A stretch of DNA of 64,000 nucleotides from Octopus vulgaris (taxonomy: Eukaryota): contig OX597820.1 of the NCBI GenBank assembly GCA_951406725.2, forward strand, positions 88,040,001 to 88,104,000, given 5' to 3'. The position numbers were made by a program, and so were the translations under genes. A model generated the notes under the pieces. The model worked only from the letters and a program-made list of their open reading frames with translations. It made no database searches and had not been told where the DNA came from. Every line of letters begins with the position of its first letter. Positions within the stretch are counted from its first letter, which is position 1. Shown here piece after piece: positions 827-25,262 of the stretch.

Positions 827-867
<41 letters not shown>

Positions 868-874
<7 letters not shown>

Positions 875-929
875 GTTAGGATTCCTGGCTTTCATCCAGG
901 CGGCCCGGGTTCGATTCCCGGCATGGGAA
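868..929 (+). pseudogene. tRNA-Glu(TTC)-derived sequence lacking tRNA positions 1-10
   Basis: TCTAGTGGTTAGGATT-CCTGG-CT-TTC-AT-CCAGG-CGGC-CCGGG-TTCGATT-CCCGG-CATGGGA-A. The anticodon stem (TTC), T-arm and 3' acceptor strand are intact; the 5' acceptor strand is replaced by (TA)n. Confidence 0.85.
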
Positions 930-3719: not shown

Positions 3720-4030
3720 ACGTCCTGTTTTTGTTGTTGTTATTATTATCATTATTGCTTTTACGTATTTTTGTATTCTTATTCGTGTAACATCGTCCGT
3801 TTTTCCGTCCTTGTTTTGTATACATTCGAGGCTTTCTTCCAAGGAATCTAATGCGCTTGGCTTAGATTTTCCTTTGGGGCTGGCCAGATCAGAGCAATCT
3901 CAAGATTAATCAGCCGAAATTGCGAAGATGATCCGGTTCTTGACTGAAGATTGAAGGCTTCGAATGTCCCGTCCGTGTTTTTTTGTATCGTCTTCTAAAT
4001 GTTTCTTGTCCCAGTTTGTATTTTTTTACA
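3720..4030 (+). mobile_element. Probable Penelope-like pseudo-LTR remnant
   Basis: Carries CGAAA-N24-CTGAAGA followed by a GTCC/TGTTT-rich tract, the same layout as the 836-bp unit and the 9780 and 25020 remnants. Confidence 0.45.
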
Positions 4031-4895: not shown

Positions 4896-7142
4896 AATAA
4901 AATATATGCATATATATAAACATATATGTACGTACCTACCTCTACATGTACATATACACGCATATATGTGTACAGGACACCAAAAGGACGTCGAACACAT
5001 AGAGAGACGAAAAACATAGACACAAACCAAGGAACAAGACAAGCAAAAAAAGGAAATACAGGACAATAAGCACAACGAAAAATCCCCTTCTTCAGTCGCT
5101 AAAGTTTCATCTACTAAACGTTTCGAAGGATAAAAGCGAGACGTATACTTCGAATGAAAAATTCCTTCCCGCGAAAAGCAAATCAATTAAAATTCTGAGA
5201 TCTTGTCGCAGAGGGGTAAAAAAAAAGGCAAGACGGTAACGACAGTACAAACATATAAACAGTAAAAAATATATATATAAACAGTGGAAAAATAAATATA
5301 TAACAGTGAGAGACAGGACAAGGAGAACAAGATAAGAAGGGCTGTTAACGCCAGACGAAAAAAGTATTGCAAACGCTGGATTATAGTGGACGACGAGAGA
5401 GGAAGATGTCGACCAGTGGCCTTAGAAGGCAGGCGAAAAAGGACGGGATAGCAGTTACGACGGAAGTACGTCGCAGATGGACGACGGGAATGGGGGAGGA
5501 GGAGCAAGAGGAAGAGAGAGAAGAAGGGGAATGGTGCGAGGAGACCATGAAGAACAGTGAGGCGGAGAGAGAGAGGAAGAGACAAGTTAAGTGAGGGAAA
5601 AAAGACGAAAAAGGGAATGGGAGAGAAAGAAAGAAAGATGCAGAGTCGCGTGAGAGTTAATATCAAGGCGAACTTGATAAACAGAACAATCTTACTTAAT
5701 AGGGTGCGTGCGTTTAGTCGTATAATATGTTAATAAAATATATGCATATATATAAACATATATGTACGTACCTACCTCTACATGTACATATACACGCATA
5801 TATGTGTACAGGACACCAAAAGGACGTCGAACACATAGAGAGACGAAAAACATAGACACAAACCAAGGAACAAGACAAGCAAAAAAAGGAAATACAGGAC
5901 AATAAGCACAACGAAAAATCCCCTTCTTCAGTCGCTAAAGTTTCATCTACTAAACGTTTCGAAGGATAAAAGCGAGACGTATACTTCGAATGAAAAATTC
6001 CTTCCCGCGAAAAGCAAATCAATTAAAATTCTGAGATCTTGTCGCAGAGGGGTAAAAAAAAAGGCAAGACGGTAACGACAGTACAAACATATAAACAGTA
6101 AAAAATATATATATAAACAGTGGAAAAATAAATATATAACAGTGAGAGACAGGACAAGGAGAACAAGATAAGAAGGGCTGTTAACGCCAGACGAAAAAAG
6201 TATTGCAAACGCTGGATTATAGTGGACGACGAGAGAGGAAGATGTCGACCAGTGGCCTTAGAAGGCAGGCGAAAAAGGACGGGATAGCAGTTACGACGGA
6301 AGTACGTCGCAGATGGACGACGGGAATGGGGGAGGAGGAGCAAGAGGAAGAGAGAGAAGAAGGGGAATGGTGCGAGGAGACCATGAAGAACAGTGAGGCG
6401 GAGAGAGAGAGGAAGAGAAAGTTAAGTGAGGGAAAAAAGACGAAAAAGGGAATGGGAGAGAAAGAAAGAAAGATGCAGAGTTGCGTGAGAGTTAATATCA
6501 AGGCGAACTTGATAAACAGAACAATCTTACTTAATAGGGTGCGTGCGTTTAGTCGTATAATATGTTAATAAAATATATGCATATATATAAACATATATGT
6601 ACGTACCTACCTCTACATGTACATATACACGCATATATGTGTACAGGACACCAAAAGGACGTCGAACACATAGAGAGACGAAAAACATAGACACAAACCA
6701 AGGAACAAGACAAGCAAAAAAAGGAAATACAGGACAATAAGCACAACGAAAAATCCCCTTCTTCAGTCGCTAAAGTTTCATCTACTAAACGTTTCGAAGG
6801 ATAAAAGCGAGACGTATACTTCGAATGAAAAATTCCTTCCCGCGAAAAGCAAATCAATTAAAATTCTGAGATCTTGTCGCAGAGGGGTAAAAAAAAAGCA
6901 AGACGGTAACGACAGTACAAACATATAAACAGTAAAAAATATATATATAAACAGTGGAAAAATAAATATATAACAGTGAGAGACAGGACAAGGAGAACAA
7001 GATAAGAAGGGCTGTTAACGCCAGACGAAAAAAGTATTGCAAACGCTGGATTATAGTGGACGACGAGAGAGGAAGATGTCGACCAGTGGCCTTAGAAGGC
7101 AGGCGAAAAAGGACGGGATAGCAGTTACGACGGAAGTACGTC
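4890..7142 (-). repeat. Tandem array of 2.7 near-identical 835-836-bp units, probably Penelope-like pseudo-LTRs
   Basis: The unit start GTTAATAAAATATATGC occurs at 4893, 5729 and 6564, and the ORF track repeats identical translations. The repeat itself is certain; the PLE origin is inferred from the ribozyme-like motif and tandem layout. Confidence 0.9.
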
Positions 7143-8308: not shown

Positions 8309-8964
8309 CGAAAGTTTATCACACAAAAGTCCAAACTGAAAGCTGAAACAGATCCACAACTTATTGTAAAACAAAATATTTGATGCATAGTTGATGCACT
8401 GCTGGAGTGGTCATAGCTGCATCGAGCTTTTGGTAAGTGCATAGATAATGCCAGAAAAATATCGTGCTACAGAGAGGGCCAAAAGAACCCGGATATCTTC
8501 GTTTAGTATCAGTACTGCTCGAGGCCTCTGATGAAAGCAGCTGTGCTGGAAGGTAGCGAAATTGTTTGACAAAACGATGAAGGCAGTGTCCTGCGGCGCC
8601 AGCTGTATGCAATCTACATAATATCGAAGGTGTATTTTGCGGGGAAATTACTTGAGTTGCTAATTTGTAAAAGTACTGAGACAATTACGCCATGGTCGGG
8701 TCATTTTGGCTAATTAAGAACATCTAAAAAATGTGATATTTGTTTTCGTTTATGTCTTCATAGACTATCTAACATCAAATGTCAAAAAGCTTTTGTCGCA
8801 AATAATAATATAACATAATACAATGATATAATGATATACATGTTTATACATGTTTATACATACATACATACATACATACATACATACATACATACGTACA
8901 AACGTACGTACATATATATGCGTGTGTGTGTGTGTGCGTGTGTGTGTGTGTGTGTGTGTGCGTT

Positions 8965-9005: not shown

Positions 9006-9722
9006 CCTGGTAGTAAAGTAAAGTCGAGCGCTTCCCTTGATGATGAAATCGTCAACCGTGTTACGAAAGCAACTAAAGCATTCGGCAAACTCCTTCATGG
9101 CCTATGGAATAAAAGAGACATTCAACTTAAAACCAAAGTACAGGTCTGTAAGGCTGCCATTCTTACTACTCTCTTGTATGGCTCAGAATCATGAACACTC
9201 AATAGACGGCACATTAACCAACTAGACATCTTCCACAAAGTCTGTCTCAGGACAATCTGCGGTTATTCATTAAAAGACAGAGTTTCCAATGTACGGTTAG
9301 TGAAATCGGGAGCTTCCCTATGCAATCGCAATTGCACTGGGCTGGCCATGCCGTCAGAATGTGTAACGAAAGAATACCCAAAGTTTTCATGTACAGCCAG
9401 CTTGACAGCGAGCACAGGACTATTGATTGACCATGTCTCAGATATAAGGACAAGCTGAAGAGTAACCTCTTAGCAGTCACGACCCCTTTGAGTAAATAGC
9501 CTTGGAGCGAACAAAATGGAGATCATCGTGTCACAATGGTATAAGAAACTTTATTGCAACCAGCATTAACATGCTTAGGGGAGCAAAGCAGAGGAGAAAA
9601 GCGGCTGCAAATATATCGCCTGCACTGACCCGTAATATTCATACTTGCAACATCTGTGGGCTTCTTTGCAAACCGTTGTCGAGACTCAAATATCACATTT
9701 GGCATAAGCCTTATAACTGACA
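9003..9722 (+). mobile_element. RTE (BovB-like) LINE 3' fragment
   Basis: YPGS..SSASLDDEIVNRVTKATKAFGKL...TTLLYGSES, QLHWAGHAVRM and a C-terminal CxxC..H..H finger; stops and frameshifts present. Confidence 0.9.
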
Positions 9723-9779
9723 AAGAAAGAGTAGGTTGTTAAATCCTCATACGTCGAAAGTGTCGAAACATATACATTA

Positions 9780-10130
9780 TAATAAATGAAAAATGTATGG
9801 TAAATAAACAAACGACACAACGTATACTGAGTGTACAACCGGACGGGTGACAGACACAGAAGGTGCTTAATTCTTCATCAGTTATCAACCAGTTGGTAAT
9901 ACTCAGTTTTGCACCATTAATGATAAGACTGAGAACGCCCTATACTGGCGGTGCCCACAAACATTTGCGGAGAATATAGGGCTGAGAGGAAAACAAAACA
10001 ATACCGAATGGACACACGAAAGTGGATAAATATGATTTAGGACGATGGACAAAGAAACGAGCAAATAATGGATAATAGCAAAATACCTCCTTAGGGCTAA
10101 AAAGTCAAGAACAGTAGGTAAGGTTTAGGA
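9780..10130 (-). mobile_element. Probable Penelope-like pseudo-LTR remnant with permuted hammerhead-like motif
   Basis: Motif at 9862-9915 (-), flanked by GTCC/TGTTT-rich tracts. Confidence 0.45.
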
Positions 10131-10438
10131 GACATCCTAAAGGGTAGAGAGAAGTGAGACAGAGAATTTGTGACTGGTCAGCTACGGGACCTGTGTGAGA
10201 AAGGGAGAGAAAGTAAAGAAAGTTGGCCACGGATCACATGATAGTTGCAGGCAGAGGAGAAAGAGGGCAAGAGAGAGGGAGAGAGAGCGACAGAGTGAAA
10301 ACAGGGGAAGAAAGTAGGAAGGCTAAGAATACAAGAGGGTGAGAAGGAGAAAAAGAAGAAAATGGAAAGGCTAGAATAGAAGTGAGAGGGTGAAAGAAAG
10401 CAAGGGAGAAAGAGTGAAGGCAAGAGAGAGCCACACAG

Positions 10439-10471
<33 letters not shown>

Positions 10472-10657
10472 TGTATGTATGTATGTACGTATGCATGTAT
10501 GCATGTATGCATGTATGTATCTATGTATGTATGTATGCATCTTAATATTTTGCTTAGGCATTGCAAGACTAATAACTTGGTGTAGAACTCACTATACGTA
10601 TGTTTCAGAACGTAATGTAATGCTTTTCCAAATCAATTGCACTCCATACACGATTCT

Positions 10658-10704
10658 CTGATGAAGCTATGAGTCCACTGCATCTTATAGCAGAAACAGC
10701 TGTA
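10658..10704 (+). ncRNA. Degenerate minimal type I hammerhead ribozyme motif (Penelope-like)
   Basis: CTGATGA-A-GCTATGAG..loop..CTTATAGC-A-GAAAC-AGCT-GTA: core boxes, an 8-bp helix II and a palindromic minimal helix III. Helix I no longer pairs. Confidence 0.6.
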
Positions 10705-10960
10705 TGCTAATGAAGTTCATAAGATAAGCATTTATTCCTTTGTCATCTCTGTATCTTATATATATGTTATGGGTATGCGATATCAAATAACAAGACGATA
10801 GGTACATGCAATTAGTGATCAGGTCGACTTTCAGCCTAAACTCGAGCCCTAGGTCCAGATACCGGGTGATTACCTGTTTATGTTGTTTTTTCTTTTCTTT
10901 TTTGCTCGGTATTACCTATACATATAAGTGTGTGTGTATTTATGTGTGCGTTTTGTGCGT

Positions 10961-19476: not shown

Positions 19477-19890
<414 letters not shown>

Positions 19891-22800
19891 TACTTTTAAT
19901 CTGCATGTTTGATGCAATCACCTGCCGGGGCACACCCAGCGCCCTAGGGCAAGTGAAGGTTAAGAGTTGTTGAAATATAGCTGAAAGCTTGGGGAGGGGA
20001 AGTAGAGAAATATCTCCATGTAATACAAACACAAACATTTACATTGATAGGGTTTTTCTAAGGATGTGGGCAGTACTTGTTAGCACAATCTTTTGGATTT
20101 CCTTGAGACATGGTTTTCCAGGGATATTGTCTAGGTGTTTCTGACATCCCTTTTTTATCATACCTAGGGCACCTACAATAACAGGAACAGTTTTTGTTTT
20201 AAGATTCCACATCCTCTGTATTTCGATTTCCAGGTCCTTATATTTACTAAGTTTGTCAAATTCCTTGACAGATACATTTTTATCAGTGGGGACGCTTACT
20301 TCTATTAGTCTGCAGGTATTTTCTTCCCTGTCTTTAACAATTATGTCTGGTCGATTAGCCTTGATCGTTCTGTCAGTGTTGACTGGAAAATCCCAGAGGA
20401 TGGTGACATCTTTACCTTCAACAACTGGCTGAGGATGGTGTTCATACCAGTTAGCAGGAGTGTCGGATTTGTAGTGTTTACATATCTTCCAATGTATATA
20501 CTGTCCTACCCTATCGTGGCGATTTTTGTATTCGTTTGGTGTCAGCACAGGACATCCCGAAACGAGATGGTCTATTGTTTCGTCAAATGTGTCACAGAAT
20601 CTGCATTTAGGGTCAGTACCGTTTCGGAGAACGTTAGCCTGGTAATTTCTGGTAAACAAGCTTTGATCTTGTGCTGCCATTATGAAGCCTTCAGTCTCTG
20701 CTTTCAATCCAGAACTCTTCAGCCACTGATGGGTTGTTGCTTGGTCTACATCAGCATTTTGGCTTCGGAGAATGTATTGTCCATGCAGGGGCTTCTGGCT
20801 CCACCGCGTCTCAATTTGATTCTGCCCATTCTTTTTTGCAGTCTGCCTGATTCGCTTTGCTTGCTTGGTAGCAGTGGTTTCTGGCTCTTCACCTGATTCA
20901 AGGTTAATGCCTAGTTCCCTTTCGAACTTATAAGCTTCCTTGACAATAGAATGCAGCTTTTTGCTGCTTTCGTGTTCACACACAAGTCGCAGCATCCAGT
21001 CTTTTGTACTAGATAGGTACCTGTTCATTCCTACAGTAGAGGTCTTATAGCACAGCTCCAATTGCATCATTCCTCTCCCCCCGCTGCTTCTAGGTAGGTA
21101 CAAGCGGTCTACATCTGCCTTAGGGTGGTGCATGCTCCTGGATGTCAGTAACTTTCTTGTCTTCCTGTCCAAGCGTTGGAGTTCCGTAAGGTTCCAGTTA
21201 ATGATGTTAAAACTGTACTGGACTACTGGAAGTGCCAGGGTGTTAATGGCCTCAATGCAATTTTTGGAGTTGAGTTCAGTCTTCAGTACAAGCCTTATTC
21301 TCCTATAGTACTCCTTTCTTATTTTTTCCTTCATAGTAGCATGATGTATACCATCTCCTTCGTTGATTCCTAGGTATTTGTAGCTTTCTTGTGGGTCAAG
21401 TTCCTTGATGGTAGTGTCAATATCTAATTTAACAGAAGCTGTTTGCCTGAGCTTGCCTCTTACAAAAGTTGCTTTAGCACACTTATCAAGGCCAAAATCC
21501 ATTCCGATATCATTGCTAAACTCTTTAACAGTTGTTAGCAGCCCTTCTAGCTCTTGGTCATTCTTGGCAAACAGCTTTAGATCGTCCATATAAAAAAGGT
21601 GGTTTATTAACTTGCTAAAAACTTTGTACCCATATCTGGCACTATCCAATTCGTTTGAGAGTGGGATCAGTGCCATGCAAAAGTAATGGAGAGAGGGAGT
21701 CACCTTGAAAGATGCCTCGTTTGATGTTGATGCTGTTGGACTGGCTCATCCCATTACTATGGCTTAGAAAGAGACGTGTGTTCCACATGGTCATGCTATT
21801 CTCTAAGAATTTTGAGACGACAGGGGAGATCTTGTATATCTCAAGGGCCTTGAGTATCCATTTATGTGGGACACTGTCATACGCTTTCCTGTAGTCTATC
21901 CATGCCATACTCAGGTTTTTGTTTTTGCTCCGGCAATTCTCTACAATCATTCTGTTTATGAGCAATTGGTCTTTGCACCCATAAGAGTTTCTTTTACAAC
22001 CTTTTTGAGCTTGAGGAAGGATAGAATTTTGTTCAAGGAAAGCGTACATTCTCTCCGTTATTATGGATGTGAGGATTTTGTAGGTGGTGTTGAGACATGT
22101 TATTGGCCGGTAATTCTTTGGGTTTTTTGTGTCTTCGGTTTTAGGTAATAGGTAGGTGGTTCCTTCAGTCAGCCAAGCAGGTATTTGCTCTGGGTTCTGA
22201 ATGACATCAGACAGAGATGCAGCGAGATGTTCGTGTACCTCTGTCAAACAATTCAGCCAGAAGTTAGGGATCCGATCCAGTCCTGGGGTTTTCCATTTAT
22301 GAGCCTTCCTAAGGACACACCTTAGCTCCTCTATTCCTATTGCTTCCCATTTCTGTTCTTCAAGTTCATCCAGTCTCTCTTTCTCACGTTCTATCCAGTC
22401 AGCCTCAGCATTAAACTCTTTTTCGTTGCTCCATACCTTCTTCCAGAACTCCTCCACTTCCTCAATCTTAGGTGGATCTTCTATGTGTATTTTATTTTTG
22501 CCAATTTCCCTATAAAATTTCTTTGCATCTGTCTTAAAAAATTTATTTTGTCGATAAAATTTGTTTCTTTTGTTATACCTTCTAAGCCGTTGAGCTTTCA
22601 ACTGTATCCGTTGTTTCAACAGTTCCTTAGTTGCAGGGAGGTTTATGAGATCTTTGATTTTATATTTTTGCTTGATTTTTCTAGCTTTTCTCGGCTTAAT
22701 ATTCACTCCTCTAGCAAGCTCATCGAGAACTGAAACATCCGCCCGCAGAGATTCAATCTCTTTTTGTATCGCTACTTTCCACTTAGGAGGTTCATTGACA

Positions 22801-23016
22801 TGCCTGGCCTTTTTCTTTGTCATCTTAATACCTAGTTGGGTAGTTACTACGTTAGCAGTGGAATAAATGAGATTATTTAAGGTTGTCAAATCATTCCCCT
22901 TATTTCTTAAGATCTGTCCTAGGGCAACGTTATATGTCATGATTGTGTTGTTATTTCTTGTGCCATTTGAAAACTTTGGTAGTGGTTCTCTATTAACCAT
23001 GTCAGTGAGCTCAATC
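19891..23016 (-). mobile_element. R4/Dong-clade non-LTR retrotransposon (RT plus restriction-like endonuclease), 5'-truncated, one frameshift
   Basis: ORFs 21642-23000 and 20039-21703 carry PGLD, NYRPITCL, IDYRKAYDSV, GIFQGDSLSP, YMDD, CRFC..ETIDHLVSGC zinc knuckle, RHD and RPDI..IEVSVP. Flanked by (TTA)n on both sides, the known Dong target. Confidence 0.95.
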
Positions 23017-25019: not shown

Positions 25020-25215
25020 CTTCTGTCTGTTTCACTGTTTGTGTGTATACATGCGTACCCGAAATGGTCGTGACTTCTAGTACCTGACTGAAGTAAGAAA
25101 GCCAAGAATGACCCATCTTTTTGTGCGTGTCCTTCTAATTGTTGTTTCTCTTGTCCGCCTTTGTGTCGTCTATCTGTCCGAACGTTTTAATACCCACTAT
25201 TGTGTTTTTGTTCTC
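25020..25215 (+). mobile_element. Probable Penelope-like pseudo-LTR remnant
   Basis: CGAAA-N23-CTGAAG followed by a TGTCC-rich tract. Confidence 0.35.
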
Positions 25216-25227
25216 TCTCTATATATA

Positions 25228-25262
<35 letters not shown>

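Follow-up and report, generated by a model that had tools for sequence, protein, structure and literature searches.

The fold at the locus and an earlier reading of it

Position 9862 of the window (64,000 nucleotides of the Octopus vulgaris contig OX597820.1, the whole stretch of DNA that was analysed) falls near one end of a truncated, non-coding repeat that carries the letters of a hammerhead ribozyme (Table 1). At four tandem loci with a common junction sequence, the unit of this repeat measures 710–771 nt; its 3' end is fixed, about 150 nt past the predicted cut, and the unit adjoins (TA)n. A first look gave 1,097 candidates of the family, of which 40 were scored and are, excluding the window itself, 79–86% identical. 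The family shows the (TA)n targeting and the partial-tandem insertion of Naiad elements. Tail-to-tail with the repeat lies the broken 3' end of a LINE ORF (9006–9760, plus strand) with a C-terminal cysteine/histidine motif, presumably RTE-like. A second LINE (19890–23010, minus strand), which we take to be HERO-like, is near complete, with RT, a C-terminal restriction-like endonuclease and one frameshift; it ends in (AAT)n, and its short 3' UTR contains a GC-rich stretch and no CUGANGA.

The conserved fold begins about 70 nt upstream of the interval (9862..9915) in which the initial annotation had placed a hammerhead, and its stems I and III are 6 bp each. Sequence comparison gives the strand order X5'-Y-II(10.x)-interaction strand-III/UH/I-linker-II(11.x)/GAAA/III-interaction strand-I/CUGANGA-X3'; from one family to another, each helix is maintained although its base pairs differ. 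The 10.x strand of stem II lies upstream of the cut and not after A9. A splicing model, raised by a CAG ahead of G10.1 in some families, was discarded, as A9 is followed by no donor and the AG is missing from other families. We consider it likely that this is a non-circular permutation in the SGC order, in which a four-way junction is predicted to interrupt the catalytic strand between A9 and G10.1; the same confidence covers the reading as a whole, namely that a TA-targeting Penelope-like repeat carries, in this copy, what is likely a hammerhead that has decayed and is probably inactive. What appears to be new is that the stem II strand normally found after A9 lies upstream, with helices X and Y bridging the gap. 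The 9862 copy itself is probably dead, since it lacks G12, the distal pairs of X are damaged and a competing hairpin private to this copy is predicted to form; the full core is kept in 13 of the 38 copies of its family.

Table 1. Elements of the split-core hammerhead fold near 9862, its carrier repeat and related copies in the window
Feature	Position	Strand	Evidence or remark
5'-truncated copy of non-coding repeat unit, no ORF	9780..10445	-	TA-type microsatellite at 5' side
Helix X, 5' strand CCCTATATTCT	9971..9981	-	Family pairing, Watson-Crick 163/184 proximal, 140/185 distal; shift controls
Hairpin Y, CCGCAA/TTGTGG	9955..9970	-	Runs gapless from X into stem II
Stem II 10.x strand GCACC (G10.1 = 9954)	9950..9954	-	158/186 Watson-Crick in family
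Stem I-II interaction helix, 5' strand GCCAGT	9944..9949	-	Fifth-pair exchange in family
Stem III 16.x strand CTCAGT (9933-9928) and GUC (U16.1 = 9928, C17 = 9927)	9927..9933	-
Predicted cut	between 9927 and 9926	-	Structure; 5' ends in 3898 family, weaker in 9862 family
Stem I 1.x strand TTATCA	9921..9926	-	211/228 Watson-Crick in family; cross-family covariation
Stem II 11.x strand GGTGC (C11.1 = 9911)	9911..9915	-	5-nt linker from stem I
G12-A13-A14-A15.1 block (G12 = A, 9910) and stem III 15.x strand ACTGAG	9902..9910	-
Interaction helix, 3' strand ACTGGT	9888..9893	-	Family columns
Stem I 2.x strand TGATAA	9882..9887	-	Family columns
CUGAUGA core (C3 = 9881, A9 = 9875)	9875..9881	-	Sequence and family columns
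Helix X, 3' strand, directly after A9	9865..9874	-	Distal pairs damaged in 9862 copy
Unrelated, very abundant family; same architecture, G12 intact, AUC triplet (U16.1 = 3898)	3826..3983	+	Kink-turn signature
Third family, three copies (U16.1 = 5141, 5977, 6812), G12 intact	5057..6882	-	Tandem unit of ~835 nt
Fourth family, 5'-truncated copy starting 3 nt before G12	25058..25228	+	Cut-site block lost, A9 changed

The initial annotation, whose quoted minus-strand letters at 9915–9862 are those of the sequence, had read them as a circularly permuted hammerhead of type II topology, opened at helix II and cutting after a GUA triplet at 9900. In the 9862 copy all three helices of that fold can be drawn, including GGTGC/GCACC as helix II and TTACCAA/TTGATAA as the helix I hairpin, and the GUA letters are conserved in the family (U in 34 and A in 38 of 38 copies). 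The helix II pairing is nevertheless private to this copy, its second pair being G·G in 29/38 copies and C-G in 2/38, and the hairpin is damaged in most of the 38 (175/266, or 66%, Watson-Crick across the family; 35 copies have a C·A mismatch and 22 a T·T). The type II fold moreover demands an 8-nt bulge after A9, is possible in 0/118 copies of other families and has no Rfam hammerhead match, and it is at the SGC site that the 5' ends of genomic copies show a step (see below). Of the 133 copies sampled, which had been picked on SGC stems, 5 can be fitted by a type II descriptor, and every one of these is from the 9862 family; the stem II strand that type II requires directly after A9 pairs in nine of the 133. 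In the conserved fold the predicted cut triplet is GUC, 12 nt upstream of the annotated interval, and GUA is not upheld. We give a type II ribozyme at this locus hardly any credence; the opening at A9/G10.1 departs further from known forms than that proposal did.

Its broader claim, a permuted hammerhead family in animal Penelope-like repeats recurring in other families, was borne out. The GAAA-N23-25-CTGANG layout does recur at 3916, at 5124/5960/6795 and at 25061, far above chance, although the last of these, while retaining the layout, belongs to a different family, is truncated at its 5' end and has T in place of A9. An A before CTGA, said to be constant, is not general: C, G or T stands there in 5,439 matches (1,575 in the control), and in some families the first pair of stem I is C-G. 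Nor is the 9862 copy the best-folding instance, given that the 3898 and 5141/5977/6812 copies retain G12. The attribution of its G12A change (9910) to CpG decay fits the family, where 21 of the 38 copies have G at position 12 and 16 have A: such decay predicts loss of G12 with retention of G5 and G8, and these non-CpG core positions are kept in 32/38 and 35/38 copies, respectively.

Other hammerhead-like sequences occur nearby. On the plus strand, 10652–10710 is likely the decayed remnant of a minimal type I hammerhead like those of Penelope elements: CUGAUGA, an 8-bp stem II and GAAA are there, as is a palindromic helix III that ends in GUA, and stem I is poor. A second CUGAUGA...GAAA in type I order (8528–8561, plus strand) is more decayed. 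A stem II hairpin right after CUGAUGA (AGAA/TTCT) was considered and rejected, as no GAAA follows. Rfam covariance models gave no hammerhead at E<=10 over 9780–10020, a weak test because the scan also missed the likely minimal type I at 10658. Over the window, the 150 of 356 matches listed contained only microsatellite-driven miRNA noise as far as RNA motifs of this kind are concerned; a partial tRNA-like match beside a TA repeat (867–921, plus strand; 39.3 bits, above the gathering score) is probably the head of a SINE.

Enrichment and compensatory pairing across families

A descriptor of the S-G-C order finds five sites in the window (3898, 9928, 5141, 5977 and 6812), compared with a mean of 0.08 and a maximum of 2 in 100 shuffles. 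A genome-wide pattern search returned 7,727 matches to the layout versus 29 for the reversed pattern, a 266-fold enrichment in counts that include overlapping matches. Arbitrarily placed tiles totalling 250 kb held one match, which fits a total of the order of 10,000 in this 2.8-Gb genome. A chance arrangement of such motifs in AT-rich repeats might be entertained, given the shortness of the motifs and the lack of independence among copies of one family. This enrichment, the fixed spacings, and compensatory pairs found across unrelated families and, in published consensus sequences, across four animal phyla all speak against it, and we regard it as already refuted.

The hammerhead core (C3-U4-G5-A6-N7-G8-A9, G12-A13-A14, A15.1-U16.1 and H17) is present across 121 copies from 15 families, the 9862 copy itself deviating by G12A, and it is flanked by stems I, II and III with covariation. 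Triplets at the predicted cut across families are AUC, GUC, GUU, GUA and AUA. H17 and G12 are spaced by 12–16 nt, and the blocks follow in the order S, G, C with a short linker between stems I and II. The partner of stem II was sought in the 133 copies, picked for this comparison on stems I and III only. The upstream strand pairs at 5/5 positions in 103 of them, versus 6, 7 and 6 in three control windows of equal width; a partner directly after A9 exists in the nine already mentioned, and in 27 if up to 18 nt are allowed to bulge out. Because block C is therefore not continuous (upstream 103 versus downstream 9 of 133), the fold would work in an SGC-like manner but is not a member of type SGC as defined.

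The remaining helices are supported in the same way. Scores for X and Y together reach at least 9 in 72/121 copies, versus 4–9 when the X strand is shifted by 15–60 nt, and gaps at the four-way junction are 0–2 nt (1–2 nt in some families). The interaction helix, which links the base of stem II with the far side of stem I, has at least 4/5 pairs in most copies of each family, and at its fifth pair the 38 copies of the 9862 family show an exchange between G-C (14), A-U (14) and G·U (9). Family-majority pairs in 15 clusters number 71/75 for stem III, 75/75 for stem I and 73/75 for stem II, versus partner-swap maxima of 57, 64 and 59, respectively. Part of this pairing arises by construction: copies had been selected on stems I and III, the stem II partner was taken as the best among 19 positions, and the genome patterns already contained C11.1. 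The 15 were drawn from 18 clusters, the other three having no upstream stem II candidate; up to six pair types occur per column in the cross-family stems, and related copies within the pairing counts are not independent. In 15 copies that share the same spacing, pairing in stems I and III stands at 98.3% and 38 changes are two-sided, a result reached in 0/500 shuffles. A cross-family MAFFT alignment was out of register and was excluded from the counts. At the boundary of stem III and the interaction helix, a kink-turn signature (a 3-nt bulge followed by tandem G·A/A·G) occurs in 31/36 copies of the 3898 family and 12/13 of the Naiad family, and is absent from the 9862 family (0/14 copies).

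Four-way junctions have two stacking forms. In the arrangement we prefer, helix II would stack under A9·G12, and X on Y. The ribozyme might instead be active with X, which is continuous with A9, under A9·G12, or might alternate between the two forms as an on/off switch. X is indeed gapless from A9 in several families; its first pair varies, however, whereas the upstream helix starts with G-C in 15/15 families (partly by construction) and in each of the 11 published Naiad ends inspected by eye in the portions displayed, as G10.1-C11.1 does. The interaction helix, moreover, links the upstream helix to stem I as in SGC ribozymes. Stacking of X at the active site thus strikes us as very improbable.

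Genomic 5' ends at the predicted cut

Reverse transcription starting at an internal site has been described for a Poseidon element (in the portion consulted of PMC11167929). Given such a start, and run-off at a cut 5' end, short copies are expected to start at +1. For the 3898 family, (TA)n is joined exactly at +1 in 112 loci versus 11 at -2/-3; microhomology is longer at -2/-3, yet fewer joins occur there. Junctions read by eye at about 182 loci (from the first 100 of 778 and the first 100 of 752 matches listed) fall at -20..-1 in 21 cases, at +1/+2 in 39 and at +3..+12 in 122. The 9862 family shows a weak step in the same direction, with about 19 ends at or after the cut versus 5 before it (40 matches, by eye; 8 in the control). 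In another family, 77 copies picked by a 3' tag form a loose cluster from -16 to +41, many of them reading through, with no sharp peak. The 3898 family is also covered by contigs of four sequencing runs, which we guess to be RNA; contigs show neither ends nor strand.

We infer that the fold rebuilds an ordinary hammerhead active site and would cut after C17, with G12 as the base and the 2'-OH of G8 as the acid, the roles given to them in hammerhead chemistry in the text consulted of PMC11300833. Unit RNAs would be cut from tandem transcripts. A Naiad-type RT, priming in (TA)n, would start at a fixed internal site about 150–290 nt downstream of the cut; running off the cut 5' end, it would leave short copies starting at +1, and passing the site on uncut or re-ligated circular RNA, it would produce partial-tandem copies of more than one unit. 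The break between A9 and G10.1 could abolish activity, a wiring for which the portions of the literature consulted offer no tested precedent.

The fold could also be hammerhead-derived but no longer, or never, catalytic, serving as a structured signal bound by the RT, with the pile-up at +1 reflecting stalling of the RT in the knot. Many copies read through the site, tandem units persist, 5' ends are found also at +3..+12 and up to +41, and the case for catalysis is built on DNA. Two observations weigh against this reading. All catalytic letters and the UH triplet are retained across families whose helices share no sequence, and the step coincides exactly with the bond that the structure predicts (112 versus 11); a polymerase arriving from the 3' side, by contrast, runs into the structure about 55 nt earlier. 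We therefore consider a non-catalytic fold unlikely and retain a cutting ribozyme as the better reading, in which case genomic 5' ends, by their step at the predicted cut, would preserve a fossil record of cleavage.

Naiads and known hammerhead permutations

A sister family of the 9862 repeat (the Naiad family) lies in sense orientation 0.7–1.4 kb downstream of a Naiad-type RT in 10/30 RT loci, and its 3' end matches the published ends of Naiad_Obim and Naiad_Ovul. The 9862 family was found downstream of the RT at 0/30 Naiad loci and is likely a non-autonomous passenger. Two other parents were considered and rejected: a Neptune-like Penelope-like ORF, separated by TA repeats or antisense, to which Pfam assigned no family, and LINE ORFs near some copies, likewise separated by TA repeats or antisense. 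One open Penelope-like ORF of 410 aa (L083:6395-7624, minus strand), which we take to be Neptune-like, encodes RT, a CxxC linker and, at its C-terminus, a GIY-YIG-type endonuclease. Weak RT matches with open frames of 750 aa suggest a young, intact Penelope-like family in the genome.

Naiads were reported to be without canonical hammerheads, with Naiad_Ovul flagged 'HHR_half_core', in the parts consulted of Craig et al. 2021 (PMC8557442). We surveyed by eye the last ~450 nt of 44 consensus sequences displayed in the supplement of that paper, the first few entries being left out. The split-core fold is present in 5/44 of these ends (Obim, Ovul, EuTe, Movir-2 and Plae), helices X and Y of Naiad_Plae lying beyond the portion displayed. 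Six nematode Naiads (Nbra-1, -2, -3, Hcon, Hpol and Asuum) carry type CSG, with a continuous core, which suggests one family opened at different points; the remaining 33/44 show neither form in the portion displayed. In the same supplement, Naiad_CGi, Sglo, Olur, Tgra, Pmar, Skow and Pfla have, within the portion displayed, no hammerhead letters and a common, conserved GC-rich 3' motif just past the stop codon, which may be a structured RNA of another sort.

The comparisons that follow draw on portions of the papers cited. The closest relative is type SGC (HRIMA-1 and variants; Eckert et al. 2023, PMC10085705), which has the same order of cut-site, GAAA and CUGANGA blocks, a pseudoknotted core, a short linker from stem I to stem II and a helix joining the far sides of these stems. 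There, however, the 10.x strand follows A9, whereas here it lies upstream, with X and Y making a four-way junction. In the text consulted, Eckert et al. assume that block C is uninterrupted, with no insertion above 1–2 nt after CUGANGA, and report SGC and CSG RNAs from metatranscriptomes and metagenomes only, CSG being represented by two metagenomic sequences; a keyword search of their supplement, as text without figures, found neither 'junction' nor 'kink'. Type CSG belongs to the same circular class of strand order as the octopus form, but keeps A9-G10.1 continuous exactly where the octopus-type form is opened. The minimal type I hammerheads known from Penelope-like elements (Cervera and de la Pena 2014, PMC4209133) likewise occur in the terminal repeats and tandem derivatives of such elements. 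They have the C-G-S order, a tiny helix III and a need for dimers, whereas the octopus form, with stems I–III of 4–6 bp and three extra helices, should fold as a monomer; their defining C-G-S order and palindromic helix III of 1–2 bp are absent from it.

In the pistol-like pseudoknot hammerhead (Zhan et al. 2024, PMC11300833), as described in the sections consulted, extra helices also surround stem II with the active site unchanged, but A9·G12 and G10.1-C11.1 form one short continuous stem, a pseudoknot replaces helix II and no four-way junction stands at A9. Naiads (PMC8557442) share the (TA)n targeting, the partial-tandem insertions and the 3' location, and non-LTR retrozymes (10.64898/2026.07.22.740005) the short, tandem, non-coding units with one ribozyme each; animal retrozymes, as described in the portion consulted, carry type I hammerheads instead. 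We found no account of a hammerhead opened at A9/G10.1, or of SGC or CSG in animal retroelements, in the openly accessible literature searched (subscription papers and bioRxiv supplements being outside its scope), and no such form in the portions consulted of PMC3088659, PMC4209133, PMC6155905, PMC10162972, PMC13725137 or two preprints.

On balance, we lean somewhat toward the view that these repeats carry a seventh natural hammerhead wiring, outside the six-permutation scheme, opened at A9/G10.1, closed by a four-way junction and active in vivo. It may be the 'missing' ribozyme of Naiads in animals ranging from cnidarians to cephalopods and crustaceans, with nematodes carrying CSG forms, and may cut tandem transcripts to units whose circles would give rise to the partial-tandem, pseudo-LTR structure. 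If this is true, non-circularly permuted ribozymes would move from environmental RNA into animal chromosomes, in thousands of copies, and the assumption of the published permutation scheme that nothing is inserted after CUGANGA would be broken. A hammerhead that accepts a four-way junction at A9 would also be a new entry point for engineered switches. The step in 5' ends makes the role of hammerheads in Penelope-like transposition directly testable, and the ribozyme, if real, would overturn the view of Naiads as hammerhead-less, which has been the basis for calling ribozymes dispensable to Penelope-like elements.
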